From NCBI GenBank assembly GCA_032718475.1, contig JAUCBJ010005452.1, forward strand, positions 1 through 44,607: a stretch of DNA of 44,607 nucleotides, in the 5' to 3' direction. Origin of the DNA: Nemertoderma westbladi. Lineage: Eukaryota; Animalia; Xenacoelomorpha. A program made the translations under genes and the position numbers. Every line of letters starts with the position of its first letter. Positions within the stretch are counted from its first letter, which is position 1. Below the pieces are notes generated by a model that saw nothing but the letters and a program-made list of their open reading frames with translations, was not told the origin of the DNA and ran no database searches. Shown in pieces: positions 3,085-44,607 of the stretch.

Positions 3085-3282
3085 ATTTTCAATTATGTCT
3101 ATTGCAAATTTAAGTAAGTTAATTATAAATCTAGAAAGTTTGATTCTATAGTGACTGCAGAATAATTCAGTTTATTTGTAATTCCGTTTATTAATTATTA
3201 TTGCTATATAGGCATCTACCTTCTTATTGCTACTACATTCGGTATTTACAGTTACTATAGCTATACATTAATATCCAACCAG

Positions 3283-7000: not shown

Positions 7001-7623
7001 CTTGTCGACATTATTGGCACCGGCGCATCCGTCGTCTACGTAGAAACATCGTCGGATGGTCTCTATGACTGTCAGAGGGAACTCGTTTTCGCACATAGCC
7101 GCTGTTTTCTTCAGCATGTCACTACATGCCACCGGCGAGTCCTTAGCGCCGAAGATCCTGACAATCATGCGCATTACATCCACATCCTTCAAGGTGAGTT
7201 GACTTATCTCCTGTGGAGTTGATGTTTTATCTGTCCATAATATACGTAAACAGTCTGAGTCTCTTGGTAGCATTCGGACCTGGTGGAACATCGCTTTGAT
7301 GTCGCAGGTGAAGGAAATTCGGTTTTCCCTGAACCTGATCAACACGCCGATGAGTGTACTGTAGATGTTGGGCCCTGTATAAAGTTGGCTGTTCAGGGAT
7401 TCGCCCTGATACATAGCTGCAGCATCATTCACTACCCTGATTTTACCACCCTTCCGAGCTTCTACCACATAGTGGATTGGGAGATAATACGTCCGTCTAC
7501 CCCCTTGCAGTTCATTCTGGGGTACCATTTCCGCCAATCCATCTTCTAGATATCCTCTAATTACATTATTGTATTTCTCCTTTATCTCGGGTAGGTCGTT
7601 TAACCGGCGTAGGATCCCCTTAA

Positions 7624-9176
7624 CCCTATTAAACCCGGGGGGGGGTCAATATGACCCCCCCCGTGGTTTTTTTATTATAATTCTGAAACAAACGCAGTTG
7701 GGAATCTGAAATTTTATGACTTTTCCTAAAAATATATTGTCTTCCTAGTAGTGAAAACCGTTTTCAAAAATATTGGGTACTTTTCGAGTTATAGCACCAT
7801 TTTTTAGCCCTACTTTTGGCACTTTTTTTGAGACGTTTTTTGAAAATTACATTTCATTAAATATGAATTGTAACATCTCTAATTTTGATTTACACCGGTT
7901 TTTTGGTGTTAGAAATTTGATGGAATTCATATCAATTGATTTAGAAATTTCAAACTTGTATTTTTCGGCGGGTACCAAATTTTGGTGCCAGCACCAAATT
8001 TTGAAATAAGTCAATTTTGTAAATTGAACGTTTGAAACTTGTTTTTTACGCAATTGGGGTTTTTTGGGTTTCTGGATTCGATGAAATATATACGAGTTGC
8101 ACCAAGCGTATCAAACTTGTATTTTTCGGTGCTGGGTGCAAATTTTGGTGCTAGCACGAAATTTTGAAAATCCATTCAATAGATAAAATTGCTTGTGACA
8201 ATTTATTTCTTGCGTTTTAGAGGTTTATGGCTGTTCTGAATTCAATGGAAAATATAATTATCGAACTAGACATATCAAACTTGTATTTTTCGGATGTGGG
8301 TGCAAGATGTGGTGCTAGCACCAAATTTTGAAAACCATCAAATATATCAATTGATTGTGTCACCTTGTTTCTTGCGTTATACGGGTTTGTGATGGTTCTG
8401 AATTCAATGGAATCAGTAAAAATTTCATAAGAGTTCTCAAACTTGTATTTTTCGCCGGTGGGTGAAAATTGTTGCGCCAGCACCAAATTTTGGAAAATAT
8501 GCAAATTGATAAGTAGATAGTATCACCTTGTTTCTTGCGTTATACGGGTTTATGAGGGTCCTGAATCCGATGGAATCAATAAAAACAGCACTGGACATCG
8601 CAAACTTGTACTTTTTGGTGATGGGTACGAAATTTGGTGCTAGCACCAAAATTTGCCAAATTACGCCGAAAAATACAAGTAGCAATGATCTGGCATATTA
8701 GAAATGTATACCATTAGAATCAGCGCCCTCGAAAACCTGAAAATGTGAATTTATAGCATCGTATAAGTGAATTAAAAATTTTGTGTTCTAACTGAAAAGT
8801 GCTGGTTACTTGTTTTTTTCATTTTTTTCCTACGCAGAGAGGACTAAACAGCCATTTTTAGTAATCATATCATTTTTTAATATTTTCCAATGTATTTTGC
8901 ACCCCAGAAAACCTGTATTGAAAAATAATTAGCCGAAAATGTATCTTTCAAATTTGGTGAAAATTGTGCACTACTTGTAATTTTGGTGCTGCAATATAAC
9001 CACCCCAGTACATTTTTTCGAAATTTTTTTTTTTCGGTCGGATCCAGACAAGTGATACCTACGTACAAACAAAAAATCAGACGTTTTCGTAAATATTTGT
9101 AGATTTTAGAGGGGGGGGGTCAATATGACCCCCTCCCGGTATTTGTACAACATTTTATAGCCCGGTACTAATAGGG
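7624..9176. mobile_element. Non-autonomous piggyBac-type (TTAA) DNA transposon inserted in pol of element A
   Basis: TTAA TSD at 7620-7623 and 9177-9180; ends CCCTATTAAACCCGGG and (reverse complement) CCCTATTAGTACCGGG; subterminal palindrome GGGGGTCAATATGACCCCC at both ends. Removing it rejoins the pol frame (MALRRL/KGILRRLNDLPEIKEKYNNVIRGYLEDGLAE). No transposase ORF. Confidence 0.88.
7900..8660. repeat. Five ~162-bp internal tandem repeats with palindromic cores inside the TTAA element
   Basis: CAAACTTGTA at 7951, 8112, 8277, 8438 and 8601, each followed by a variant of AAATTTTGGTGC-TA-GCACCAAAATTT. Confidence 0.85.
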
Positions 9177-23089: not shown

Positions 23090-23936
23090 CCCTATTCCAC
23101 CTGGGGTTGGGCAGAATCTGCCCAACACTTTTTATTTTTAGAAATTCATGATGATGATTTTTATGTATTATTATGAAATTCATTGACTTTTCCTAGAATT
23201 TAATTGGCTTTCTGATGGTTACAAAATATTTTTTTCATCATTTATACTTTTTGTGCTATGGTGTGTTTTTCATATCATAGGTACATTTTTTTATTATAAT
23301 ATATTTATTAGCCTAACTGGTAGAAAAGATAATCCATGGTTGGATAGTTCCCCTGTCAACAAGCTAGAATACAACCAATTACAGTCCAGGACATTCACTT
23401 GGCTGGGTTGTAAAGTTAAATTCAAACACGAGATTGTCTACTGCTTGGATTAGTACACATCAATCACATTATTTTTTAATAACAAAATACTAAACAGACA
23501 GATAAGCAAGCAATAAGTCTACTAGGATAAAACAACAATCACCATTGAAACCAGTATATTCCTAATGTAATACAGCAGACATAAACAGAGGTGAATAAAT
23601 TTATTCAATAACAGCACCCCTGCAAGCAAAATTTTCACTTGGGATGTCTGGCAGAGTTAGGCAGACAGTGGTGTTGGGAGGAGTATGTATAGTATTATCT
23701 CATCTTTTTACTATAATGGGTTATCTTCATGATAATTAATTTATATGGATATATTATTTTAAATTATGAATATATAAAACTCAGAACAGATGCATTATAT
23801 ATTTTTCTATACACCTGCGAAAATTTGGAAAGTTTTGATAAAATTATCATTACTTTTTAGTGTATAATAAACTGTTGGGCATATTATGCCCAACCCCAGG
23901 TGGAATCTCGGACAAAAGAGCCCAGGTGGAATAGGG
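23090..23936. mobile_element. 847-bp non-autonomous piggyBac-type element (MITE) with ATAA TSD
   Basis: Perfect 16-bp TIR CCCTATTCCACCTGGG / CCCAGGTGGAATAGGG; ATAA at 23086-23089 and 23937-23940; empty site with a single ATAA at 21169-21172 in the duplicate; subterminal palindrome GTTGGGCA-N5-TGCCCAAC at both ends. Confidence 0.92.
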
Positions 23937-25001: not shown

Positions 25002-28000
25002 AGTCTAAATAATATTTTGCCTTCCGGCTAGAATCTCGCAAAAATTCGAGATATATATATATAATTTAATCGAAAATACGGTTAAATTATTTGTCAAATA
25101 ATTAGTTGGTCTCAAAATGTCAAATAAATTTGCAATATAATATTGGGAATTTAATAGGATATAGTTATAGTAAATACCGGTATAATATTTAAACAAAATA
25201 TTAATTCCATAGCTATTATATAGCATTTAAATACCGGTATGACACAAAATAATTTCTGAATCTAATTCAAAATATTCAAAAAATGAACTTGCCACCCAAA
25301 TATTTCTAATTTTATATATAGCTCTAATCAACGTAATTTTAATTTCAAATATTATGTGTATCCACTAGCGCGTGGCTACACCTTCGGGTTGCGACACTCT
25401 CTCTCTCTCTCTCTAACTTGAGCGATTCAAAAAACCATGGCCGGCTAAACCGAACTATCCTAACAATAAATTGAGTTCAGCTTCGCAGTTAAACAACCGG
25501 TAATTTTTTACTGCTTCCACAAATACAATAATGGTGCCAACAGAACAACTAACCTTGTTTGGTGTGGGATTCCACGTCCGCGTCCAAAGTCTCAGGCTCT
25601 TCGCTGATTACAAACCGAACCTGCAGGCCCACACAAACCCCAAACTCAGAAGCTCCGTCTCGCCATGTATCTCCAGATGGTATAAAACAACTAAGCGGTT
25701 ATCTAACATACTGGTACAAAACTCTAGAATTTATTATAAAAATAATTTTGACCGAAACTGAATTCTCACAAACCTAGCTAAAATTTTTCAAAAAACTTAC
25801 TAATTATAGCTTGCCCTAACGGCCTAATGAACTGCTGTATTTGCGATTAGTAAACGCACTACCGTACATCCCACCGTACGCAGTACAGTAAATAAAAAAG
25901 TACACCAACCTAACAGCCTAAGAATACTGTATGTGGTACAGCAAAACAAATATATTTTCTACCATATGCAGGACAGCAAGTCAGCCTAGTGCACTACTGT
26001 ACCACTGTATTGCGACTAGTGAATACAGTAATCTAACCTAACAGCCTAATAATACACTCTTTACTGTTGCAAGCAACAGCAAATAATCTCATGCTTTACA
26101 GTTAAACTAGCCACCCCTTGACTAACTGTTAAAGACATACAGAAACGTGCTTTACTGTTAAACAGGGGCGATCAGGAGCGCGCTATTACTACTGCAGAAC
26201 TGCTAAATACAAAACTGCTACTTACCGTTGGATGGCGCTAACCTGCCGTCTGCTAATATATTTTACTAATTTTCTACGGCTCCTGCAAATCGCTTGTTCC
26301 TTTCTCTACCGATCACTCCATAGAGAGCTAACTGTTCGAATCTATGAGCCACGCGGGAATAACCAAAACAATACACCCGAATCGGCTCCCTAAGCTACCG
26401 GTACTTAAAACGAGTGTTAGAGGCTTGACACTCAGTGTGTATTCTTATGGCCCAATCTTACTGCTAAAATGCGCAAATAACCACGTCCTTTCTAATCGCA
26501 AATACTGGGGTTCCCTAACGGAAAATGTGAATGTGAGAATATTTAAAATAATCAAAGTGGAGCAGAATGTCTTATTGGGGACTGACGCTATGGGTCTAAA
26601 CTTGCCTTCGGCTGGCTTTAGGCCAGCAATTTACTACTGTGTTCTGTATACTGTGATCTAGCTTATCGACCGCTATTTTCAAATAACCGCCCAGCGTGAA
26701 TAGTTTACAGTACTCCAAATTATTACCTTAACTACTCTCCGCTATGCTGCAATACAAACTCTTAATTTTACTAATTAATTACAGTGTACTAATTACTAAG
26801 TATTCCAGAATGCGCAATTCTAATTTATTACACAACGGGTTACACTAGTAACAGCCTAAATACCGTATTATTTTTGACCTAATCAGTAATTATTTATCGT
26901 AAACTAAGAATAGAAATCAATCAAGGGAAAAGGGCGCCTATCCAAGCATTCATAATTTAATCAGGCACACTTTAGCAACACACCAATCAATGTAACAATC
27001 AATAGTTAATACTTACCAATTTATAGTTCTTAATGTACAATTTACAATCTTCAGTTCACAATTCACAGTTCGCAACTCGCAACCTACAGTTCGCAGTGTA
27101 AAGCATGAAGGCCTCTCCCGGGTACATGTAGGCTTCCTAACTAACCCGATTCCTGCCCCCCTAATACTACAAAATAGAGACAAAATCTGGATCATCAGCC
27201 CCCTAATTACTGTACCAGCGAGCAGTCTTCTCTCTACACTGCTAGCCTTCCGCCCGCAACGGTGACCCCCCACCAGCGTTGCTCGCCCTTTGAATCCTCC
27301 GCACTCCCTTCGTCGCTAAACCCCCAGTGCGCCCGCCGCACCTAGCGGTACCTTAGCCCTCCATCTAATGAGTAGCTACCGTAACGGCGCATACAATCAT
27401 ACAGTCTGACAGTCTAATGAAATCGCGTGGGATTATCGCATCTTAATCACATAGAACCATTAATTAAAGGGTAGAAATCATAGTTCCGATTGTAATTAGC
27501 AGTAATCATTGAGATTAAAATGAGAAACACAGCAAGAAATAAGCAGAAATTACAAATTTGCGAATTATTGCAAGAAAACAATTATAGAATTTACAAAGTA
27601 AATTACAACAGCAACTGAGATTGAGGGACACTGAGATTACATTGCACATACTGGAAAAACGGCCAATTCATAGGTGATTCATGAAGGATGATGCAATAAT
27701 TCTCTGATTGGTTCCCCAATCCGCGCTACCATTAGACCAACCTGGAAGCAGCTATTATTATTAGCCGGATTGTGAACCTATTCCTCCTTGGAATCACAAA
27801 TCGTCACCATATGGTAATTTTGGCGTTGCTTAATTTAGCGGTACTAATAATACGGTACATGAAATCTAATTTAGCGCTAATATAAAAGAAAATAAAACAA
27901 ATATGTAGTTAGTCCTATTGAAGCTAATAACAGCAAGCTTATATCAAGGGTTTCATAGGAAACTTGCTACCGTGGAACTATTTACTTATATTTTACTACA

Positions 28001-28283
28001 AAATTACATAGGTAGGACTACATACTGTATAAAATGGATAAATTCAAAAATATGGGCGTTTTACTTTCCTTATCTAAATATGGTTGCGCGTCTTTCTGGC
28101 TTATCTAAATAATTATACTGTATGATGGCTAATATAGGTACACAGCGCCATATATCGTAACAACAACCGATCCGGTATTTCTCCTGGAGGGTTCTCATTC
28201 TCATATCTTTCAGTTTCGAGAGTAAACCGCTTGTGGTCGCAACTCCTACAAGCATCTTTACAGATTTTCTAGAAAATCTCAAC

Positions 28284-28677
28284 TGTAAGCGGATTCAATT
28301 CCCTGCACTACCCACCGAAAATTGGATTAGTGGCATTTTACCAATTATAGTTGGCGAGGTGACATTACCAATAATAATGTCACCTCACAACCAACTAAGG
28401 CGATAGACGCCGCAAGCCACAGGGAGAGTTGAGAGGTCAAACCATCTCAGAGGGACAAACAGGCTAGCAAGGCTAGCACGTGGGGATAGTCGCAACAGGG
28501 AGTGGTGAGGTGACAATTAATCAGGTTAAGCCAATAATTGGTGGGGAAACACATTGGAGGTGATTAGAGCGCATCTATTGGACAGGCTTCTCAGTAGAGT
28601 AGAACTGATTTAATATGTGTTAATAATAATATAACTGTTGCACTTATTGATTCTAATTCAGTTGGTTTCCATACAGT
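28284..28677 (-). repeat. Putative R/U5 part of the 5' LTR of element B
   Basis: Minus strand reads ATTAAA-TCAGTT ... GCTTACA; long hairpin GAGGTGACATTA-N7-TAATGTCACCTC at 28356-28386. Confidence 0.45.
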
Positions 28678-28914
28678 TGTGAGACCGGGACAGTTTTTAA
28701 CTGTCGTCACTACTGTGCTATTATATTCTGACTGTGTTATTATTACGTTCTGTGATTATAATGACTGACAGTAAAAACTTCGGCCTATTATATATCCAGA
28801 CTACAAGTTTAGCAGCCTACGGACGCGGCGTCACGTATAACACACACCGGTCGGGATTCATGCCAACTTCGTTGGCCAACTGCGGGACTGCCAACTTCGT
28901 TGGATCCTGTCACA
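28678..28914 (+). repeat. Putative short (237-bp) 5' LTR of element C
   Basis: TGTGA...TCACA termini; initiator-like CAGT at 28691; AGTAAA at 28770-28775; lies directly upstream of the plus-strand gag region. Confidence 0.6.
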
Positions 28915-28925
28915 GTTAAAAACTG
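28915..28925 (+). promoter_or_regulatory. Non-tRNA primer-binding site candidate GTTAAAAACTG
   Basis: Immediately follows the LTR end; lacks TGG; exact reverse complement of CAGTTTTTAAC at 28691-28701. Confidence 0.55.
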
Positions 28926-29219
28926 ACCAACAACTCAACAGAAAGAAATAAACTGTGACCACAGCTACCAACAGGAGCGAACACAAGGTCCAGGCCCCAA
29001 GGTCCAGAGGGAGAGACGATCCCGCCGCGAACCCCGAGCGTTAGAGACGACACGATTCGGAAAGCAGCAACGAGGCAGTACTGGCCCGCCACACCGGATT
29101 CGACAACAAGGGACGCTCCGGATGTTGAGGAGGAGGGCGGCCGAGTACGAGGAGGAGAGGAGAGCGAGTCGAAGCGTGATCAGAGCGGCGAACAAGGTAC
29201 CGAAGTAGCTGGCTGACCA

Positions 29220-29962
29220 ATGGCCGAGGGTGGCGAATGGCCCACCAGAACGGCAACAGTGGGGCCGATGGTAAGGCGCCGGATGAGGAGGGAAGGCCAA
29301 GTACAGGAGGAAGACGTCGGGATGAGCAATCGCCTACGACGAGGGTACAACACCACCAGGAGGTTGTTGAAGGAAGCTAGAGAGGGAAGAAAGGTAGACC
29401 AGCCCAAGTTGTACCAGAGGCTAGGTGAGTGCAACAAAAATGTTCGCTACCTAGTCCGATTTGGGCAGGGGGAACTAGCAAGTGAGAGGGTGAGGGGGGT
29501 CGCCACAGAACTGTTCGAATTGTGGCGATCCGAGGTGGTGGAGGCTAGCGTGGTGTATGTAGGGCTTTATCTAGTAGATGCGATGGGAGTCCGTCGCAAC
29601 TGAAAAGTCCACTACATCCTCTGCGAAAGCAAGAAGAGTGTTAGAAATAGATCTGGTATGTCAGCTAGATATTGTTGCGCTGGATCAAAAGGAACTAGAG
29701 AGACATCTGGATGAGTGGACCGCGTTACTAGAGAGGGAGAGGGAGCTAGCGAGAGAGTGGAAAGAGATGGCCGAGAAGGTGGCAAGAGATTATAGAGAGC
29801 GGGAGGCAAGGGAGGCGGAGTGGGCTGAGAAGGAAATAAGTGAGCGCAAAGAGCGTGAGGAGAAAGAAACGAACGAGCGCAGAGAGCAGGAGGTGAAGAA
29901 AGCTGAAAGGATTGCGAGAGAGGCAGAATTGGCTGATCAGAGTATTAGAGAGGATAGAGAGA

Positions 29963-30018
<56 letters not shown>

Positions 30019-33000
30019 GTATGCGGGATGATAAATACCCGGTTGTGGGGGTTAATGCAATATAGTCCCCCCAGCCCAAGTTGTACCAGAGGTTAGGTGA
30101 GTGCAACAAAAATTTTCGCTACCTAGTCCGATTTGGGCAGGGGGAACTAGCAAGTGAGAGGGCGAGGGGGGTCACCACAGAACTATTCGAATTGTGGTGA
30201 TCCGAGGTGGCGGCGGCTAGTGTGGTGTATGTAGGGCCTTATCTAGTAGATGCGAGGGGGATTAAGTTAGTGGGATGGGCAGACCCACACGACACCGAAC
30301 CCGAGGTTAACCCCGAAGATTCGGTGTCGTCGGTTAGCAGGAACGCTAGTAGGCATGGGAAAATTAGTAGGACGAGCAGGCGACGGGAGTCCGTTGCAAC
30401 GGAAAAGTCCACTACATCCTCCGCGAAAGCAAGAAGGGTGTTGCGAGATAGATCTGGCGTGTCAACTAGACATTGTCGCGGTGGATCAAAAGGAACTAGA
30501 GAGACAACTGGATGAGGGGACTGCGCTACTACTGTATAAATCAACAGTGTGAGGCTAATGGCATGGCAGTATAATTAATGTCAACGTGGGGGAAACAGGC
30601 AATTTGCCTAGTGAGGGCAGGGAGGAACGCGGGTAAATAAACCCAGTGAGGATAAAACTAACGTGTCGACTGGAGGGGAACATGGGCATGGGGGCGAGAT
30701 AAGAGGTGATGGGTGGGGGGAAGTGGGCACGGGCACCCCACAACAACCAATTAATGATGAGAGGGGAGGGGGGGCAGAAAACGTCCCACAAGCGTCGGCA
30801 GATAATACGCGCGGTGAGTTAAGTGAATCGTGGTACCCGACGACAGAGGAAAGGGGGGGGGGGGGGCAACAGAGGCCCCACGGGTGTCGGCAGATAATGC
30901 GCAGGGTGAGTTAAGTGAACCGTGGCATCCGACGACAGAGGGTAATGGAAGGACTGCGAATATCCACGGGGCTGTCCAACCAGGCAGAGGGAGGGCTGTT
31001 GGTGCTGTAAGCAGCCAAATGAGGAAACGTCGAGCCCACTTGGAAGATGGAAGAAGGACAGTGGAGTTCATCCAGGAGGTTGATACGAGATCTCATGAAG
31101 GAGGACATTATGCCGATTATACTGGGAGAGATAGTGGAGGCGATAGGGTAGCGCGAATGCCAGCATTGGACCCAGAGGTCATGGCATACATACTGGTTAA
31201 TAGGCAAGAACCTGATAGGCCTATACCGGTACCTGCACACCAGTATGACTATAACATGTAGGGACACAATATATATCCAGGGGAGGGGGGGGGGGGGGGG
31301 TATTGCAGATAGGTGTATGGGCCCCAATATAATTACATCGACACCAGTACCAAACATAACATCGGTGGGGGGGGGGGGGGGCAGGGTGACATTCCCCTAT
31401 TACAGTATCCGCAATATACACAACCAAAAACAAGAACCCCAATCCCCTCAGATCCAAACAAATCATTCGACACAGAGATCTGGAGGGGACCGCTACCCCC
31501 AATGATATATCCCACTCAGGGAAAGTCGACGAACCCGAGAGGCGAAGCACACCCAACATTAAAGGAGCCTGTATCTCTACCGTCGAGCGCTAGAAGTTCA
31601 AGCGATGGGAATGGCATCACTCATCGACACGCAAAAAACTAGAATTGAGCTGCCACCCATAGAGCATTTCAAGTTTGATGGTAGCAAGCCAGAAGAATAT
31701 CTACAATTCCGGGAAAAAGATATTTTGACAAAAAATCTCACACAGACGGAGTGCCTTAAATATCTACAAATCTATACAGGAAAACAAGCTTACGACATCG
31801 TGAGACAATACCAAGGTATTGAAGGAGGATTAACGACTGCATGGAGAGCCCTGGACAGGGAATTTGGCTATCCTGTGAAGATTATCCGACAAACCTTAAG
31901 GGGAATAACATCAGGCGGACTCGCAGACAACCCTTTTAGCATCAAGACTTTCGCTAACAAAGTAGAGAAAGCGCTAATAGTATTATAGACTCTAGATGCA
32001 CCTTACGAACTCAATGCATTGAACAACATCACCACGATAGCGCAGGCACTACCGATCTGGCTGAGAAACAAATGGAGAAAGATCGCTTTCTCCACTCGAG
32101 AAAAGAAAGGTGTGGAGCCAGGATTGAAGGAGGTGTCGAACTTCCTGAACTACGAGCCGGAGCTAATAATGGATCCAGTCTGTCCGTTCAGTCTGTCCGA
32201 ATAACGGATCACTACTATACTGTCCTCACTATAGTAGTGAGGACAGTCTAGGCAAGGTACTGAAAACGGAATTCAGCCTACCTAAACCAGAACATAGTCA
32301 GGCAGATGCATTTCCGAAAGTGAGACAGTCGCTACCACATGCAGCCACACAGGGGACTTCAAGTCCACAGAGAGCTTGGAGTAGAGCCACACCGTGGTAG
32401 GGACAGAAGCAAAGTAACAACACAAACAAATACAAACCCAATACCCCCAGTAGGCCGAGTCCAAGTAACCAAAACACTAAACCACCAGATATGTCAAAGG
32501 CACAATACGTGAAGCGCTATATAAGGAACGCTACAATCCCGAATACAAATGTCAATTGCATCGAGATGGGACACATAAGTCCATAGACTGTAAGCATTGG
32601 CAGGCGATACTCAAACAAGGTTGGATAGCCTACACTGGTAAAAATGGACTATGTCATCGATGCGCGGTAGGAGGTCGCAGAAAGGATGAATGCCAGGAAC
32701 CACCGATAAAATATGCCGAGACTGATGGGACTGGAGGCCAAACCATGGCAACGAGCACCATGGGAGCAAGGAGGAAGAGGACAGTACTACTCGGAGTAGT
32801 ACCAGTGAGAATAATAGGAGAGAACTGGGTATCGGTTATGACATTAATGTTGGTCAATAGTGGAGCAGCGTTCACGCTAACGGAGAGTTGGGTGGCCGAG
32901 AAGATAGGATTACGAACCAGGCCAAGTAAAATGGCGGTGACCACGATCTCAAGCAAAGACGAGGTCATGAAGATGAGGAGGGAATGATGGAGATTGCAGC

Positions 33001-33366
33001 GAGAACGCCAGTGTGCGACTATGGGGCTACCATCGAACGCATTCAGATAATACAGTCGATCAACATTAACGCCAGGCGACCTACGAAGATCGAGATCAAC
33101 CAGTACCAGTACCTGGACGACATCGACTTTTCCGTACTGGAAATGGACGTCCCAAAAGTGTCTCTCAGAGTCTGAATGGACTATCCGAAGGCCCACGAGA
33201 GACTACAAACCATTTTCGGCGATGACAGAGAGCGAGACCCGATGGGCATTCTCACGCCATTTGGGTGGACGCTCACTCGCCCAATTAAGACGAGGACACC
33301 GTTTGGCGTATCCGAAACATCTGGATGCATGCTGTCCGGTACCGTTGAGGACATAGAACAGAAACC
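29220..33366 (+). pseudogene. Degenerate, 3'-truncated Bel/Pao gag-protease of element C
   Basis: VNPEDSVS; FKFDGSKPEEYLQF..LKYLQIYT..AWRALDREFG; LPIWLRNKW; GLCHRC; VLLGVVPVRI..LVNSGA (degenerate DSG); ILTPFGWTL. No RT or IN follows. Confidence 0.85.
29399..30530 (+). repeat. Internal duplication in gag of C (29399-29730 and 30071-30530) flanking a (GA)n microsatellite at about 29955-30016
   Basis: Both copies start CCAGCCCAAGTTGTACCAGAGG; copy 1 lacks 128 bp (30256-30383 in copy 2) between GCGA microhomologies. Confidence 0.88.
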
Positions 33367-35152: not shown

Positions 35153-35668
35153 AATAGGGAAGGAAAGCTTGCACTTTATGAATACTTATAACTATATTTT
35201 ACCTAGCACACTACCTATAACTTTTAATAATAAAAATAATTAATTCAGATATACATTGAAATTCTCACTGTCGCTGCAATAAGTTTTAAACAATAAAATA
35301 ATGTTAGATTTATTAAATTTGATAAAATTCAACAGGAGCCGTTGGGACATTTAATATACGAGATTAAGTGAACTATATAACGTACAAAGATTACTGATTA
35401 AGTTATTTATAATAATAGTGCCGTACAGTACAAATCAGGTCAACGAATCAAATAGTAATCAAAATAATCAAATAGCTACTCATAGTGTTCCTTCGAAGTT
35501 GATACATCGAGTTATTGATGTCCTTTTAACTCAATAGTTAAGTGAATATCTGCCGAAATGAAACGAATTAACGCACCACTTAACCGCTAACCACAAGCTG
35601 TATGTGATTCGATATTTATACACCGAGCCAACCAACTATATCTGACCCATATGGCTGTTATATTTGAA

Positions 35669-36440
35669 AGACCCAGGCTGAAATCGACCCAGGGCTAAGG
35701 ATAATTCAAGTAGACCCAGGCTGAAGTCGACCCAGGACTAAGGATAATAATTCAAGTAGACCCAGGCTGAAGTCGACCCAGGACTAAGGATAATTCAAGT
35801 AGACCCAAGCTAAAGTCGACCCAGGACTAAGGATAATTCGAGTAGACCCAGGGTGAAGTCGACCCAGGACTAAGGATAATTCGAGTAGACCCAGGCTGAA
35901 GTCGACCCAGGACTAAGGATAATTCGAGTAGACCTAGGCTGAAGTCGACCCAGGGCTAAGGATAATTCGAGTAGACCCAGGCTGAAGTCGACCCAGGACT
36001 AAGGATAATTCGAGTAGACCCAGGCTGAAGTCGACCCAGGACTAAGGATAATTCGAGTAGACCCAGGCTGAAGTCGACCCAGGGCTAAGGATAATTCGAG
36101 TAGACCCAGGCTGAAGTCGACCCAGGACTAAGGATAATTCGAGTAGACCCAGGCTGAAGTCGACCCAGGACTAAGGATAATTCGAGTAGACCCAGGCTGA
36201 AGTCGACCCAGGACTAAGGATAATTCGAGTAGACCCAGGCTGAAGTCGACCCAGGACTAAGGATAATTCGAGTAGACCCAGGCTGAAGTCGACCCAGGAC
36301 TAAGGATAATTCGAGTAGACCCAGGCTGAAGTCGACCCAGGACTAAGGATAATTCGAGTAGACCCAGGCTGAAGTCGACCCAGGATTAAGGATAATTCGA
36401 GTAGACCCAGGCTGAAGTCGACCCAGGACTAAGGATAATT
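35669..36440. repeat. 18 x 43-bp minisatellite in the 3' UTR of element D
   Basis: Unit AGACCCAGGCTGAAGTCGACCCAGGACTAAGGATAATTCGAGT; near-identical copies with no unique spacers. Confidence 0.97.
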
Positions 36441-36741
36441 AAGCGTTGGAGGCGGCGTGAATCTAAAGGAGTTGATTGTCGTTCGTCCATGCGTAGTTCG
36501 GCGTATCTCCTTTAAGTTGACTAGTGTAGAGTAGAATGAGATATAATTTGATGTAATAACTTTGGAAATAAACAAAGAAATAATTATTATTACATTTCCA
36601 TAATAAATTCATATCATCCCAGTCGTTGTCACTCGGTGATACTAATATCCACATTACATTATTACAGTTCTAAAATCCATTTAGTGGAGAGGTCCAATGC
36701 CATACATATTCGTCATTATACATAACATACGTATTATTACA

Positions 36742-37119: not shown

Positions 37120-40100
37120 CTATTGAATTGCGTTCATATTATTATCGTGAGCAATGTCAGACGAATCTGCTGAGTCCTCATTTGCTCGTTTTGCGTCAGT
37201 TTCTTCCTCTGTAATTGTCGCCTCGAGCAAGCATAGCTTTGTGACATGTCTAGAGTAGATTGTGCCGCCACACCTAACTTGTGCTGATCTAACACAACCG
37301 TCGGATCCTAGATTTACAGAGTCTATCACCCCGGTGATCCACGTTCGTCTATTCTTTGTGTCTGTCATTTGAAGTACAAGGTCGCCTGGTTGTAGGTTTC
37401 TTTTCTTAGTGAACCACTTTTGTCTTTCTCGCAACAGCGGTAAGTATTCTAGAAGCCATCTATCCCAGAATATTTCAGTCAATGCCTGTGCCTGCTTCCA
37501 GGTCTTTCGACAATATATATCACCCTCCTCATATACCCCAGGGCAAGGTGAAACTATCTTACGTAATAACAAGTCGTTTGGTGTCAGTACCTGGTCGGCA
37601 GTCGGATCATCTGTTACTTTACAGAGCGGTCTTGAGTTCATAATTCTTGCTGCCTCAGCGAGTGCTGTTCTCACTACGCCTTCGGTGACTAGCTTGTTTC
37701 CTAGGGCAACACGTAAAGCATCCTTAGCAGGCCGATTCAATCGTTCCCAAACTCCAGATGTGTGAGGTGCATAAGGTACTTGGAACTCGAATTTCGTTTG
37801 AGGGCCTAAGTTGTGTTGAATTCGTGAAACGTCCCAGTGGTCGATTGCGTCAGATAATTCGGTTTCGGCTCCGACGAAATTTGTTCCATTGTCGGATCTG
37901 AGTAGTTTTACATTTCCATATTGGCAGACAAATCTACGGAAGCAGTTTATGAATGTGCTTGCAGATAGATCTTCCGCTAAGTCTAGTGCAACGGCTCGAG
38001 AGACTAGGCAAGTAAAAATTACGCCCCACATCTTCACAGATCTTCTGCCCTGTTGTACAAGCATAAATCCCCAATAATCAACACCAGTGTAGGTAAAGCA
38101 GGGTTCAAATGCTGTAATGCGATCGATGGGTAGAGGTGCCATTATTTGGTTAAGTGGAGTTGGGTTGCGAACTTTGCAGGGTACACATCTGGATACAATA
38201 CGTTTTACCAAAGAAGGTCCCCCCACAATCCAATAAATTTGTCTTACTATCGCCAAAGTATGATCTCTGCCTGTGTGCATGTTCTCTGAATGTGTATACC
38301 TCACTATCAACCTGGTCACTGGGCAACTGGAGGATAGGATTATGGGTTGTGCCATATCAGGGTTTGTTGGTGTCTTCACCAATCGGCTGTTCATACGTAT
38401 TACGCCATCCTCTCCTAGAAAAGGACATAACTTAAATATGTTGCTGTTTCTGTGTATGGGTTTGTTCACTTTCAAACTTGCTAGTTCAGTTGGATATGTC
38501 TTTTGTTGTGAATATTTCAATACAAGGACACGTGCATCCTGCACCTCGGCTAATGTTAGAGGATACTGTGATTTTGGTGCTGGTTTTGGCAGAGAGTTTA
38601 ACACATCGCGTTTCACAACCTGTATCGTTTGTTTTTTCTTGGGTTTGTTCACAGGCTTCACTGTTCCTTCTTTATCATTGACTGACTTTGCATTAGAACA
38701 TAATGATTTCGGTAGTACCTTAATCTTCTTCTTTGGTATTAACCTTTGCTTAAGACTACGTCTTAAGCGAAATGAGCGAATATACCACATTTTAAAACGC
38801 ACCAACCAAGCAACAGTTCTAATCAAAGGAATCCAATCTCCATAATATGAAAGCAGCTTGTCTAGTAACAGATTTGTGGTATTTGTAGGTGTTTCGATTG
38901 TTATCATCACATCAATTGAATGTAATTGTGCATAGTCTATCGAACTAGTAGGGATAGGTTCTACATCGTCTCGTGGGCCCATGTCATTAACTTTGCGTTT
39001 AGATTTTATTTCAGCAGTAGGATCCAAGTCCTTACCAGTATATTGCTGAGTAGCATTTGGCCATTCTAGTTCATCAGTTTGTAAGAATTGGGGTCCTTTT
39101 GACCATAGGTCAAACTTATCAATGAAGTCTAGTGGGAACGCCCCACGACTGGCCATGTCAGCTACATTGTCTATTCCCTTCACATGATGCCATTGATTTG
39201 GATTAGTACTCTCGACGATTTCACCGACTCTATTAATTATGTAGGTTGGATACCTTTTATCCTGGTTTGCTATGTATTGTAACGACGTTCTGGAATCACT
39301 CCAAAAATGTGTCGCATTTATAAATAGTTCTACTTCATCATGTATTATGATTGACATTCTAGTGGCAAGAACACAAGATTGCAACTCCTTTCGGGGTATA
39401 GAAACAAACTTCTTTCGCGCAGTTCTGGTTTTTGCCAGTACAAATGCTGTCGATACTTCATATTGCGGTTGTTTGCAACTTTCATTGATAATGGTATTTG
39501 GTGTTTCTTCTGTCAAAGCTCTCCTAAGTTGACGCAGGTATGCAACAGCTCCTAATCCAGTCTCACAGGCATCACAAAATATATGGAGTTCTATGCGATC
39601 TGAACTCAAGCGATTCGAAAAATAAGCACGGGGTAATGAGAGTTCGTTCAAACAGTCCAACTGGCGACTCCATTCGTTCCAACGTGTAAGAAACTCAACA
39701 TCCAATTGGGTATCCCAGCTAGGGGTTGATATGGACAACTCCCGCATAAATCTCTTGCCGATAAGTAATACAGGAGCAACTAATCCTAATTTGTCATAAA
39801 TAGATGCCAAACTAGATAAACAATTCCGTTTTGTAGTTGGAAACTTTCTTGGGCTGACTTTAATACTGAAGGTATCTGCCTCCGTGTCCCACTTAACACC
39901 TAATGCCCGGGTTGTAGGGAGTTTGTCGAGGTCAAGGTCTAGGTTTGGGTCAGCTCTCTTCGTTTGTGGAAGCTTATCAAGAAGTTCCCGCGAATTGCTT
40001 TTAAATTTTGTTAGATTAAAACCACCTTTCTTCAAGCATTCGATTAAACCAGTTGCGATCTCATAAGCTTCATTAACTGATCCAGTCGATTTCATCCCAT

Positions 40101-43100
40101 CATCGACATAAAAACCACTAAGTATAGTCTTTATTACTTGTGGGGAGAAGTCTTGAATATTATCTTTCGCGGTCTTTCGCACCATTGAGCAGGCGGAACA
40201 TGGGGATGAACGTGCTCCAAATATCTGAACAACCATTTTGTATACATCAGGATCGCGTTTCTTTGAATCCTTGTCATACCATAAGAATCTTAGGCTATTA
40301 GAATCTTCTTCAGTCGTGTTTACTTGATAGTACATACATTCAATGTCACAGGAAAATGCAATTTTATCCTGCCTAAATCTCATCAGTACGCCTAATAGGT
40401 CGTTGGTAGCATTTGGTCCTTCCAGAAGTTGTGAGTTCAAAGACATTCCTTTGTATGTTGCAGCTGCATCGAACACAATTCGAATCTTATCTTTATTTGG
40501 ATTTACTACATAGTGATGAGGGAGATAATATGCATTATGATCATCTGCAAGCTCCTCAGTCTCTAACTTTCTAGCATAACCTTTTGCTATATAATCCTCC
40601 AAAATTTCTCTGTACTCGTTCTCTCTTCCTGGGTTTGTGGCAAATCTTTTTGTCAGACTTTTCAATCTTGCAATAGCGAGTGGTTTGTTATTTATTAACT
40701 GTCGGTCTTCATGTTTGAATAACAGTGGTACCTGGTAATGCCCAGTTGGCAAAAGTACGGCCTTCTCTAGGAGATTTATAGCTCTCTTATCACTTTCAGT
40801 TTTGTACACCTTACCTTCAGGTGTTGTAAAGCCTTGTCCCTCTTGGCTCCAAAAGTGTGCCAACTGTGTGTAAAGATCATTATCAGGATCGGTACTTATC
40901 GGATAATTTATTGGATCGTATATTGGTTTGTTCAATGTTTCTATTAGTGAAGGGTTGTCCATCACTTCCCCCACACAGGCTTGCATGGACTCCTCTATAT
41001 AGCAAAGTCTAGGACCAGTCACACACCATCCAAATATGCCTTCTATCGCAAAGGGTTGTTTATTCACATCACTCCCCCAGCACTGTGCAGTCCGTATGTG
41101 TGCTGCTGGTACATTGCTTCCCAAAATCACAGAAATCTTATGAACATCGACAGGTGGGTAGTCTAATTTATCTCTAATGTTATAAAAATGGGGCCAATCA
41201 ATCATCCTTGAGTCAGGTAATTGTGTGTCAAAATGCATGCTTTCGTGAACATTCATATTGTTCATAACTAGTTCTCCATGATATCCCGGTAGCATAGCGC
41301 TTATTGTACACTGAGTTCTAGCTATTTCGACAAGAACACCATTTTCTAATAATGTATTTACTTTTATGAACCTTTTTTCTGATGGAAGGTTCATCAAATC
41401 CACTACTCCTTTATCCAAGAAACAGGTGGTAGATCCTCCATCCAGTATGGCGAAGGTAGTGATAGGAATTCTATCCATAAACTTAATCAGTACAGGAATA
41501 ACTGGTACCATAGCTCCCTCCAGATATTCTGTATTTACAAGAAGACCAATTTCACCTTCCCGTGGCTTAGGATGCATTGATTGATGAGCTGGTGTACTGC
41601 TCAGTGGGTGGAGTAGAGTATGGTGGTTTATACCACATTTTGTGCATGTTGCTTTCGACTGACATTTTTCTGTGAGGTGCATTCCTAGACAATTAGTGCA
41701 CCAATTGTTGCTTTCAACATGTTTCTGCCTTTCCCCTAGGTTCAGTTTCATGAAGGATCCACATGAATATATTCGGTGACCAATTCCACCACAGTAAATG
41801 CACTTGTATGCTGCCTCCTTGAAAGGTCTGACTATAGATGGACCTGTTGGATTTGTATGATTCTTATTGGGTTGTTGCTGTTTATTTGGGTTTAATACAG
41901 GTTTACGATAGGTTTGTTGTAGTTGCATTGGAGATTGAAATCGTGCCGTCAGTGGCTGATAGTCTGGATTTGATAAAGGTGGTGGTGCAACATGATGCAA
42001 AGGATATGGTCCATTTTCTGACATATGGGTGTAGCCTTGATTTGCTCCATAGTATTGTTGATTGGTATTTCCGTAATGGGTATCAGTGAGTAACATGGTT
42101 GCACGGGGATGTTGTGGAAATCCCAGCCTCCCTGGCAAATTCTCAAAGGAATTGTGTTGTGATCCATCATTTGGTGGACGAAATGTTGTTTTATTATTGC
42201 CTCCCCGATCCTTGTTCTGGCCCTTGCCATATCCTTGAGATGATGATGTGGAATCTTCGATAGCCTTTCTATTGACTTTAAATACTGAGTTACAGGACAC
42301 TCCTGCTGACCATTCAATATGCTGTACTACATCATTGAAAGTTGGTTGTCTATTATGGATCATTTTTAATTCATGAACACGTTTTTGCCATTTATACTGC
42401 ACATGAGTGGGGCAGACACTTATTATTCTTTTCATATGCTCTACACTATTCATTTCATTAGACCGTCCCATTTGTTCCAATAACTGTGTTGCTTGCATGA
42501 GGTTATCAGCCAATTCTCTCAATCCAATGATATCATTATCACCCAGGCGAGAGATATCAACGAGTTGGGATATTGTCTTATCAACTATTTGTAATGAATT
42601 TCCATAACGGTCATTTAGTATTTCCAAGGCTTTAGCATATCCAGACTGCAGCCCTTTCACCTTCCGTATAGCAGTATGTGGTGTTCCACGGGTATATTGT
42701 AACAGGTAATTAAGTCTTTCAGAGTCTGTAATGTCATGGACATGAACTCTGTCATAAAAGGTTTGAATGAAGCTGACAAACTCAATAGGATTACCAGTGA
42801 ATGGTTCTGGAATTTGTGGTGGCAATGTTAAACGCATAACAACATTTTTCCAAACTGATTCTGTAGTTGTTGACTGTCCTACATTATTTGTAACTGCGCC
42901 AGTGCCAAGGATTGAATTAGAGTTCGAATCGTTGTGTGTACCCAGAATCTGAGCTAGAATAGTATCAGCCTTAGAAATTAGCCGACCTCTTACCCTACTG
43001 TCACATATTTCATTGTTTCTGGAACTTGAATTTTCAGGTTCGTCAGGCATATCTGTATCCACCTCATGTTCTCTTACTTTGGTTATCTTTCTAGGACTGG

Positions 43101-44607
43101 AAATAATTACTTTGTTGTAATTTCTGTCTTGTTCTCCACTCGCTTTCCTACCATGAGATTCTGTTTGTGTTGCCATGGTAACTGACTGCTTGTGATCATC
43201 GGGTTCGAACATATTCTGTGGTTGTTGTTGTTCCGGAGAGTAAACGTTTGTGACCTGTCTTTGTGAATTGCAACTAATATATATAGGTTCTGGCTCAGAC
43301 AGCACTGGGCTGACGATGGCTGCAGGATTAAGCACAGTTGATAATTCTGTAGTCTGCTTTGCAGGTACATAAATGGGAGTAGGCACTAAAGGGGGTTTTA
43401 CCAAGGAATGCTCCTGAGTTGCTCTTATGCCATTGCTCCCGTATGGTCGAGGTAGGAATGGTGGTTGGATACGAGATTTAAACACTGGTACAGGGTGTGG
43501 AATGGCTATTGGATTTGGGCCAGCTTGCAAATGATATGGGGTGCCACGTGGGTTGTAGTGTACTGCTGCAAGAGGCCCTCCTTGCAAGCATGCAGCACAT
43601 TCCTGGTCATTGCCATCTTGTTTCTCTTCAATAATTGTGTCAAGTTCGGCTGCCCTTCCAGTTACTGGTCGTTTAATTGGGTTCAATGACCTTGCTGTAG
43701 ATGCAATAAAGTTTGAATGCTTTACAGGAGTATCAACATATTCAAAACAGTTATGCTGTGGTGCATCTGAGTAGGATGTATGGTACCGTGCCACTCTCAT
43801 CGATTTCACTTTTAGGCCAGGTGTCGACTGCGTGTGGCCCAAAGACACTGACCCACCTTTCGCTTGAATGTGTAATCTCGGCTCTAAGTTATCCATTTTG
43901 GGCTGTTCAAGCTCATGCTCAGTCAATTTTATAGAGTGATCTTTGGAATTTCCTACAGTATCGGGGAATGTACTGACATTCCCAGAGTGAGGTGCAGTTC
44001 GGTTTACTGCAGTGGCTTTATTTTGGCAATTATGAACATCGATAGACACCGAAGCATCATTATCAAGCTGAACTGATTCATTTTCATTAACATTAGATGG
44101 CTGATATTTTGAAATTTTATCTAAAACATTAGGATCATTTTTGGGTTGATAACTAGGGCTAATGTAACTAGTACCTGCTACACCATTATCCACTAACATA
44201 AATTTCGGTACATTACTTTTTCCACTGGCTGCATTACACACTTCAACAGTCGCACGAACAGGTGTACCAACTCCACTTCCACCCATACGTCCATTTGGTA
44301 CTTCAGCACTCCGCTCCATTTGCACTCTACTAACACTAACACTACTAACAGGTACCGGTATCACATTAATGTTGTCACTAATAGAAATACTTGCATTGGC
44401 ACATGGAACATCAGGGTCTATCGATATTCGCGAATTTTTTGTTTCCTGAATTTTTTCCCCAGATTTATTTTGGGCGAAATCCCTTAATGCAGCATCCCGT
44501 TCCAATAATTTTAATCTGGCCCTGGCTAATTTTGCATTGTCATTAGCTTCCTGTAACTTTACTTTCACCTTTAATGCTCGCTCTTGATGCTCATGCTCAG
44601 CGCGGTG
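37120..44607 (-). CDS. Intact Bel/Pao gag-pol polyprotein of element D (more than 2482 aa, 5'-open at the window edge)
   Basis: Frame stays open to 44607. Gag CIYCGGIGHRIYSC / CTNCLGMHLTEKC / CTKCGINHHTLLH; PR ILDGGS; RT YYLPHH..RIVFDAAA..FYVDD; RNaseH FCDAC, SIPRKELQS, NVADMASRG; IN HSENMH..CVPC, GVDYWG, SDNGTNF, GVWERL. Confidence 0.97.
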   Translation of the reverse strand, partial: HRAEHEHQERALKVKVKLQEANDNAKLARARLKLLERDAALRDFAQNKSGEKIQETKNSRISIDPDVPCANASISISDNINVIPVPVSSVSVSRVQMERSAEVPNGRMGGSGVGTPVRATVEVCNAASGKSNVPKFMLVDNGVAGTSYISPSYQPKNDPNVLDKISKYQPSNVNENESVQLDNDASVSIDVHNCQNKATAVNRTAPHSGNVSTFPDTVGNSKDHSIKLTEHELEQPKMDNLEPRLHIQAKGGSVSLGHTQSTPGLKVKSMRVARYHTSYSDAPQHNCFEYVDTPVKHSNFIASTARSLNPIKRPVTGRAAELDTIIEEKQDGNDQECAACLQGGPLAAVHYNPRGTPYHLQAGPNPIAIPHPVPVFKSRIQPPFLPRPYGSNGIRATQEHSLVKPPLVPTPIYVPAKQTTELSTVLNPAAIVSPVLSEPEPIYISCNSQRQVTNVYSPEQQQPQNMFEPDDHKQSVTMATQTESHGRKASGEQDRNYNKVIISSPRKITKVREHEVDTDMPDEPENSSSRNNEICDSRVRGRLISKADTILAQILGTHNDSNSNSILGTGAVTNNVGQSTTTESVWKNVVMRLTLPPQIPEPFTGNPIEFVSFIQTFYDRVHVHDITDSERLNYLLQYTRGTPHTAIRKVKGLQSGYAKALEILNDRYGNSLQIVDKTISQLVDISRLGDNDIIGLRELADNLMQATQLLEQMGRSNEMNSVEHMKRIISVCPTHVQYKWQKRVHELKMIHNRQPTFNDVVQHIEWSAGVSCNSVFKVNRKAIEDSTSSSQGYGKGQNKDRGGNNKTTFRPPNDGSQHNSFENLPGRLGFPQHPRATMLLTDTHYGNTNQQYYGANQGYTHMSENGPYPLHHVAPPPLSNPDYQPLTARFQSPMQLQQTYRKPVLNPNKQQQPNKNHTNPTGPSIVRPFKEAAYKCIYCGGIGHRIYSCGSFMKLNLGERQKHVESNNWCTNCLGMHLTEKCQSKATCTKCGINHHTLLHPLSSTPAHQSMHPKPREGEIGLLVNTEYLEGAMVPVIPVLIKFMDRIPITTFAILDGGSTTCFLDKGVVDLMNLPSEKRFIKVNTLLENGVLVEIARTQCTISAMLPGYHGELVMNNMNVHESMHFDTQLPDSRMIDWPHFYNIRDKLDYPPVDVHKISVILGSNVPAAHIRTAQCWGSDVNKQPFAIEGIFGWCVTGPRLCYIEESMQACVGEVMDNPSLIETLNKPIYDPINYPISTDPDNDLYTQLAHFWSQEGQGFTTPEGKVYKTESDKRAINLLEKAVLLPTGHYQVPLLFKHEDRQLINNKPLAIARLKSLTKRFATNPGRENEYREILEDYIAKGYARKLETEELADDHNAYYLPHHYVVNPNKDKIRIVFDAAATYKGMSLNSQLLEGPNATNDLLGVLMRFRQDKIAFSCDIECMYYQVNTTEEDSNSLRFLWYDKDSKKRDPDVYKMVVQIFGARSSPCSACSMVRKTAKDNIQDFSPQVIKTILSGFYVDDGMKSTGSVNEAYEIATGLIECLKKGGFNLTKFKSNSRELLDKLPQTKRADPNLDLDLDKLPTTRALGVKWDTEADTFSIKVSPRKFPTTKRNCLSSLASIYDKLGLVAPVLLIGKRFMRELSISTPSWDTQLDVEFLTRWNEWSRQLDCLNELSLPRAYFSNRLSSDRIELHIFCDACETGLGAVAYLRQLRRALTEETPNTIINESCKQPQYEVSTAFVLAKTRTARKKFVSIPRKELQSCVLATRMSIIIHDEVELFINATHFWSDSRTSLQYIANQDKRYPTYIINRVGEIVESTNPNQWHHVKGIDNVADMASRGAFPLDFIDKFDLWSKGPQFLQTDELEWPNATQQYTGKDLDPTAEIKSKRKVNDMGPRDDVEPIPTSSIDYAQLHSIDVMITIETPTNTTNLLLDKLLSYYGDWIPLIRTVAWLVRFKMWYIRSFRLRRSLKQRLIPKKKIKVLPKSLCSNAKSVNDKEGTVKPVNKPKKKQTIQVVKRDVLNSLPKPAPKSQYPLTLAEVQDARVLVLKYSQQKTYPTELASLKVNKPIHRNSNIFKLCPFLGEDGVIRMNSRLVKTPTNPDMAQPIILSSSCPVTRLIVRYTHSENMHTGRDHTLAIVRQIYWIVGGPSLVKRIVSRCVPCKVRNPTPLNQIMAPLPIDRITAFEPCFTYTGVDYWGFMLVQQGRRSVKMWGVIFTCLVSRAVALDLAEDLSASTFINCFRRFVCQYGNVKLLRSDNGTNFVGAETELSDAIDHWDVSRIQHNLGPQTKFEFQVPYAPHTSGVWERLNRPAKDALRVALGNKLVTEGVVRTALAEAARIMNSRPLCKVTDDPTADQVLTPNDLLLRKIVSPCPGVYEEGDIYCRKTWKQAQALTEIFWDRWLLEYLPLLRERQKWFTKKRNLQPGDLVLQMTDTKNRRTWITGVIDSVNLGSDGCVRSAQVRCGGTIYSRHVTKLCLLEATITEEETDAKRANEDSADSSDIAHDNNMNAIQ

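Follow-up and report, generated by a model that had tools for sequence, protein, structure and literature searches.

How does an LTR retrotransposon begin reverse transcription when no tRNA primer-binding site (PBS) follows its LTR? The question is raised by a locus in the xenacoelomorph animal Nemertoderma westbladi, in a stretch of 44,607 nucleotides (contig JAUCBJ010005452.1, assembly GCA_032718475.1), referred to below as the window. Remains of Bel/Pao elements are clustered in it, with Pfam matches to Peptidase_A17, DUF1759 and DUF5641. Bel/Pao is one of three large LTR groups in animals. An earlier note on this DNA had pointed to an 11-nt complementarity between one putative LTR and the bases behind it, and had suggested priming by the element's own RNA in the manner of Tf1. 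On the sequence evidence set out here, self-priming in some form, whether internal, strictly Tf1-like, or from the 3' R or in trans, is quite probable.

Structure of the element and limits of its LTR

The element, on the plus strand, is a truncated Bel/Pao LTR retrotransposon of which the 5' end is left. Behind its LTR lies a degraded gag N-terminal region (29220..30552), recognised from open reading frames and repeats, with an internal duplication (29399-29730 and 30071-30531); residues encoded by 29220-29600 gave no Pfam match, and the region is assigned to gag by its position. It is followed by a DUF1759-like Bel/Pao gag core with one in-frame stop (31563..32204; Pfam DUF1759, E 0.0033, below the curated cut-off) and a broken aspartic-protease region (32481..33313; Pfam Asp_protease_2, E 0.0044, below the cut-off; tblastn matches at 32631-32957 and 33080-33313). 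Searches by tblastn with Bel/Pao polyproteins support the gag core and protease, with a best E of 4e-15. Reverse transcriptase, RNase H, integrase and a 3' LTR are absent downstream of the protease region, so that this copy cannot self-prime on its own.

The stretch around the LTR is covered by three DNA runs (X1, X2 and X3) from one organism and two studies. Contigs span 28300-29500 throughout, and the summed depth is high well upstream of 28678, which had been proposed as the start of the LTR. A start at TGT 28284 was predicted from the sequence first and then tested against the loose ends of contigs. Loose ends with unrelated flanks to the left of 28284 were found in 34 contigs of X1 and 27 of X2, with agreements of 0.40 and 0.42; the loose-end cells end in G-rich runs, as expected if some of these copies are 3' LTRs behind a purine tract. 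The inverted repeat at the LTR ends, counted by eye, matches at 10 of 14 nucleotides with a start at 28284 vs 6 of 14 with a start at 28678. The contigs of two studies break at 28284, and the start at 28678 was not borne out; the primer motif consequently lies 407 nt into the LTR and not 13 nt.

The resulting 5' LTR (28284..28914) is 631 nt long and runs from TGT to ACA with an imperfect terminal inverted repeat, its left end being given by the flanks. The right end is placed at 28914 by the terminal repeat, by likeness to the ends of related elements and by short contig sides at about 28903-28927, which together make it probable; it was not seen among the loose-end rows listed, and one unexplained X3 loose-end cell (4 contigs), in which the letter directly behind the terminal CA is not G, counts against it. 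One X1 contig is identical to the window over 28789-29153. Joints in X2 and X3 connect 28903-28927 to internal sequence from 28992 onward, and by these joints other copies carry 28915-28925 and diverge directly past 28923-28927. No second copy of the LTR was found within the window. A minus-strand reading of the LTR was rejected, there being no fitting purine tract or TGG site and the internal gag lying on the plus strand. Another repeat of very high copy number, with a summed depth above 30,000, adjoins the left side of the LTR at 28210-28261.

Complementarity between the LTR and the sequence behind it

Positions 28915-28925 (GTTAAAAACTG) match the reverse complement of positions 28691-28701 (CAGTTTTTAAC) at every letter. 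The former directly adjoins the LTR end TGTCACA, so that the pairing comprises 11 nt at offset 0. We regard 28691..28701 on the plus strand, contiguous in the DNA, as a candidate self-primer, and 28915..28925 on the same strand, abutting the LTR end, as a candidate non-tRNA PBS. No TGG site follows the LTR end, the sole CA followed within 0-5 nt by TGG in 28700-29230 being at 29076. Both observations of the earlier note, the perfect 11-nt complement and the missing TGG, were thereby confirmed. There is no tRNA gene in the window, and a search of 27500-29500 gave no Rfam match up to an E of 1.

When the 631-nt LTR was shuffled 20,000 times with its dinucleotides preserved, at least 11 complementary nucleotides at offsets 0-5 arose in 28 cases. 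Over the window and both strands, 10 of 1,639 ACA positions have at least 10 complementary nucleotides in the preceding 631 nt; those that score 11 or more are the 28915 site, its mirror, a local hairpin at 32221 and the internally repeated sites 4250, 4252 and 8295. The helix between 28691-28701 and 28915-28925 is present in both the minimum free energy and the centroid folds (z -3.20, with 0 of 200 shuffles equally stable), and all 11 of its pairs have a pair probability of 0.99. The predicted folds include this central helix and further U5 stems. Its register is such that the 3' base of 28691-28701 pairs with the first base past the LTR, and in the window copy the inverted repeat reaches 14 bp by pairing of TGT 28702-28704 with ACA 28912-28914; most copies of the family are unpaired beyond the 11-mer.

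Variation among copies of the family

Forty sites in 28210-28970 vary at 25% or more, where shares are those of summed contig depth and not of copies, and exactly one of them falls inside each 11-mer. In the candidate primer, 28692 A>G accounts for 31% in X1 (6 contigs) and 42% in X2 (15 contigs); in the candidate PBS, 28924 T>C accounts for 40% in X1 (5 contigs) and 24% in X2 (2 contigs), at a PBS-side summed depth of only 297 and 187. These two positions are pairing partners and their variants carry complementary letters, replacing an A-U by a G-C pair, the variants being unphased. Both sites lie in CG dinucleotides, which mutate often, and this weakens the covariation; the CG decays that would not be complementary, at 28691 and 28925, stay below 25%.

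The same data bear on how far the pairing extends. Position 28702 is C in 95% (X1) and 85% (X2) of the summed depth, so that the duplex of most of the family stops at 11 bp, exactly at the LTR edge. The three extra pairs of 28702..28704 (plus strand) with the LTR-terminal ACA are mostly private to the window copy, and the 14-bp pairing proposed earlier holds for that copy but not as a feature of the family. Two local hairpins, with TTT and AAA loops, had also been described within the partners; they can fold in the window copy, but one local-hairpin pair is lost with 28702 C (where 28692 G is absent) and one with 28924 C. The latter variant disrupts the local PBS hairpin yet keeps the long-range pair. 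The initiator-like CAGT with which the motif begins in the window copy reads CGGT in 31% (X1) and 42% (X2) of the summed depth.

Predicted transcription start

Motif scans of the plus strand gave several candidate signals in the LTR, all of putative function. A U3-like region with seven CCAAT/ATTGG boxes (28321..28581) is followed by the only TATA-like word upstream of the primer, TATAAC (28630..28635), by the only YYAGTY word in the LTR, the initiator-like TCAGTT (28658..28663), and by AGTAAA (28770..28775), which resembles a poly(A) signal. Since the TATA-like and initiator words, 30 nt apart, form the sole such pair, transcription is predicted to start at about A 28660, 31 nt before the primer, and the primer is therefore likely to be internal and not the first 11 nt of the RNA as in Tf1. 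The Tf1-like geometry that had been proposed, with a start at 28691-28692, 14-bp pairing and kissing loops, is unsupported, given an LTR that begins at 28284 and promoter motifs that favour about 28660.

A primer assembled by splicing, with an acceptor at CAG 28691-28693, was also considered for this family and rejected as unlikely: pyrimidines make up only 3 of the 12 preceding nucleotides, GG takes the place of the AG in 31-42% of the summed depth, and the best spliced score is 9 vs 11 for the contiguous pairing. The AT-rich stretch 28594-28676 (plus strand) ends in a branch-point-like word, a pyrimidine tract and a CAG at 28676. Were the RNA to begin further upstream, the stretch might serve as an intron of the LTR in front of the primer. 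It overlaps the predicted TATA and initiator words, and no donor was established for the acceptor-like site at 28676.

Related Bel/Pao elements

With an RT-RNase H alignment that took the neighbouring element of the window as its seed, eighty loci were collected from metagenome contigs. Both LTR ends were fixed by a direct repeat in 13 of them (the end of L073 was extended by 2 nt by eye), and 67 were without two defined ends; L028 and L058 were excluded as their repeats do not end in CA. The relatives were scored for complementarity, contiguous or spliced, of the post-LTR sequence to their own LTR. Under a strict splice rule, 9 of the 13 reach at least 10 nt vs 3 of 182 mismatched PBS-LTR pairs; with a splice rule widened afterwards, 10 of the 13 reach 10-15 nt, and of 380 mismatched pairs 7 score at least 10, one of these at 11. 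The pairing is contiguous in four relatives (L030 and L053 with 11 nt, L050 and L054 with 10 nt). In the other six (L002 12, L014 15, L032 11, L035 15, L049 12 and L055 11 nt) the primer spans the predicted splice junction of an LTR intron, and five of the six have GTAAG donors, pyrimidine-rich acceptors and predicted introns of 72-164 nt; for relatives such as L014, L035 and L002 the predicted length is 72-77 nt.

The pairing begins 0-4 nt past the LTR end in the relatives. The post-LTR letters differ among the ten, each matching its own LTR and not those of the others, and relatives with ends fixed by direct repeats show a similar wording, with a GT start and an A-run. In a quick RT tree the ten self-complementary relatives lie on separate branches, and two relatives with ordinary TGG sites, L004 and L075, which score 5 and 7, fall together with two named arthropod proteins and away from the self-complementary families. 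The score of L073 is 6 within a 650-nt span; over the whole of its LTR it is 12, one G-U pair included. The distance from TATA box to primer is 133 nt in L014 and 124 nt in L053; in L002 it is 31 nt, which would fit a 5'-terminal primer there.

For ten loci only the LTR start was defined and the end was chosen afterwards; two of these duplicate L032 and L055, and one is the same as L073. Six loci with ends so chosen score 10-13, which is weaker evidence because such scans give chance scores of 10. A further 14 loci without defined ends, together with the window's minus-strand neighbour, yielded one clear case, L005, of the same family as L002; the remainder gave chance-level scores, including chance 10s, and are mostly uninformative. 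The closest gag relative, L003, has no recognisable LTR end, and a scan of IMG/VR returned no relatives. The gag of the window element is at most 33% identical to those of the relatives and is loosely placed on long branches, so that the relatives show a shared signature and not close kinship.

Two pairs of sequences among the relatives differ in ways worth recording. A single contig of L053 contains two LTR versions (1-330 and 6690-7103). In one of them an acceptor-like end immediately precedes the last 5 bases of the primer; the other is intron-less and carries the whole 11-mer. L011 (504-526) and L073 (2243-2265) are sister copies with the same exon-2 start and a PBS one base apart, so that the pair formed is Watson-Crick in L011 and G-U in L073.

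A model for priming and its alternatives

The reading we favour, and consider reasonably likely, is that the window family primes reverse transcription by an internal segment of its own RNA. In RNA beginning at about 28660, the segment 28691-28701 (about +32 to +42) would fold onto 28915-28925. The RNase H of the reverse transcriptase, if Tf1 is a guide, would cut once between positions 28701 and 28702 and free the primer with its 3'-OH opposite the first base past the LTR. Only the last 11 nucleotides of this primer, a capped fragment of about 42 nt, would be paired. DNA synthesis would start at the terminal A 28914, and strand transfer would still be possible with the R that is left (28702 to about 28790). 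The earlier proposal of tRNA-independent self-priming in Bel/Pao thus gains from the matching variants and from 10 of 13 relatives, but not in its Tf1-like details.

Four alternatives were weighed. Were the helix structural or regulatory, serving leader folding, packaging or a translation switch, a tRNA fragment or other host RNA might prime here or nearby, and half-tRNA priming without TGG is known in Ty1/copia lineages (PMC6317226). It is hard to reconcile with this that the post-LTR sites of the relatives differ, each matching its own LTR only, that pairing starts 0-4 nt past the LTR end, where a primer must sit, and that the TGG relatives are without pairing; we consider it unlikely. Similarly unlikely is a strict Tf1-type arrangement, in which the RNA would begin at 28691-28692 and supply the primer with its first 11 nt. 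Length and register are as in Tf1, where the available text gives 11 nt and a cut between nucleotides 11 and 12 (PMC7175516), and the TATA box of L002 lies at a suitable 31 nt; against this, there is no TATA-like word 25-35 nt before 28691, the sole TATA-like/initiator pair gives 28660, CAGT reads CGGT in 31-42% of the summed depth, and two relatives have the primer 124-133 nt past the TATA box.

The source of the primer might also be the 3' R, with its own copy of the 11-mer, or the partner RNA in a packaged dimer. The 11-mer lies between the predicted start at 28660 and the poly(A)-like word at 28770 and would hence be present at both RNA ends, and sequence covariation cannot distinguish its copies; yet the 5' leader alone folds into the helix with a pair probability of 0.99, and cutting the 3' R would presumably harm the acceptor for strand transfer, which makes this source improbable. 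Finally, the motif is AT-rich, the right end of the LTR is placed indirectly, and the 10 of 1,639 ACA positions with at least 10 complementary nucleotides upstream recall that such repeats do occur, all of which would suit a chance inverted repeat in a decayed copy. The shuffles (28 of 20,000), the matching variants, and the same signature in similar wording among relatives with direct-repeat-fixed ends render chance very improbable.

Internal self-priming, if it operates as modelled, would have a geometry, with an internal or splice-built primer, unlike that of Tf1. It would explain why annotation tools see such elements as PBS-less, predict their escape from control by tRNA fragments, and supply a precise cut site, 28701/28702, for RNA-duplex cleavage by a Bel/Pao reverse transcriptase. 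We lean slightly towards a wider reading, that a broad animal Bel/Pao branch swapped tRNA priming for an internal self-primer that is spliced together in many families and ready-made in others, the window family among them. Were this so, host splicing and the choice of start site would gate reverse transcription; if many Bel/Pao elements self-prime, the strategy would have arisen or spread in a third superfamily.

Other features of the window

On the minus strand, a Bel/Pao polyprotein frame open for 2,495 amino acids (37120-44607) runs off the end of the window, its 5' LTR lying beyond. The named relatives of the intact polyprotein that neighbours the element are about 35-46% identical to it, and their sources include sea urchins, a tunicate, corals, molluscs and fish. 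Past a Bel/Pao integrase ending near 4430, also on the minus strand, a second frame broken by stops and containing Cys/His clusters lies at 484-3171. It gave no Pfam match, and a stretch of it resembles, by eye, a 3'-5' exonuclease; it is possibly an extra ORF carried by the element of that integrase. A G-run followed by TGT at about 319 (minus strand, at the edge of about 1-320) looks like a purine tract and the start of a 3' LTR.

Upstream of the minus-strand gag at 20887, the segments 21160-21145 and 20956-20941 (minus strand) may represent a degenerate self-primer of a neighbouring family. An initiator-like word occurs there about 15 nt past a TATA-like run and can pair imperfectly with the bases past an ACA; this pairing, which includes wobbles and a mismatch, amounts to -9.2 kcal/mol and is not significant in a strict test. 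Other insertions and repeats include a MITE-like insert of about 810 nt with 38-nt terminal inverted repeats (23094-23906), situated where the duplicated blocks 20215-21172/22132-23089 meet the blocks 21169-22133/23937-24901, a 43-nt tandem array (35618-36562), and a further insert (7650-9150) that interrupts a Bel/Pao pol and has inverted ends and subterminal repeats of 163 nt.

Comparison with known systems

In C. elegans the Bel/Pao element Cer7 is said to supply its own tRNA-like primer, a tRNA mimic with a TGG-type PBS, and the Tor elements of Oikopleura use spliced-leader priming. Unlike Cer7, the window element showed no tRNA or Rfam family at its locus. It is filed as Bel/Pao by its proteins and departs from the ICTV description of the group in its PBS. 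According to that description (PMC8742986), Belpaoviridae are tRNA-primed, with an 18-nt PBS complementary to tRNA-Arg or tRNA-Gly. The window element resembles them in its TG...CA LTR of 631 nt (within the 0.2-1.2 kb given; right end inferred), in its DUF1759 gag and Pao-type protease region, recognised by weak Pfam matches together with tblastn, and in its animal-type relatives; it differs in having no tRNA-Arg or tRNA-Gly site of this kind, as judged by the lack of a TGG-type PBS.

Our literature search, outside which lay most subscription journals, Repbase Reports, GyDB and supplements, found no report of self-priming in Bel/Pao. Among the papers it covered, PMC3118150 nowhere mentions primer, PBS or tRNA, PMC554778 nowhere mentions PBS or tRNA, and PMC3286476 nowhere mentions self-priming. 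For Tcn1 (Ty3/gypsy) and for TAR, Houba and Osr-1 (all Ty1/copia), self-primers have been predicted from sequence, as far as the available part of the source goes (PMC6317226). Its criterion of at least 10 complementary nucleotides starting 0-5 nt past the 5' LTR describes the window element as well. Those elements belong to plant and fungal lineages of other superfamilies, and no splice-built primer is described for them in that part of the source.

Self-priming has been described for Tf1, Tf2, Tj1, Tosmo1-3, Tcry1 and the Tf1/sushi group of Ty3/gypsy chromoviruses, to which the window element comes closest (PMC7175516, PMC4600332, PMC5341516, 10.1101/2022.12.06.519325). Like that group as described there, the window element is without a TGG tRNA site and has an 11-nt LTR segment complementary to a PBS at the LTR end, the complementarity exceeding 10 nt within 0-5 nt of the LTR, and a cut at the 3' edge of this segment would give a primer. 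Unlike it, the element belongs to a different superfamily, its gag and protease being of Bel/Pao and not of Ty3/gypsy chromovirus type, so that it is no member of the group. The Tf1/sushi group is described with a 'pretzel' fold of three duplexes; the predicted folds of the window element show a central helix and other U5 stems. The primer of Tf1 is the first 11 nt of the RNA, where that of the window element probably lies about 31 nt inside and those of the relatives would lie up to about 100 nt inside or be split by a predicted intron.
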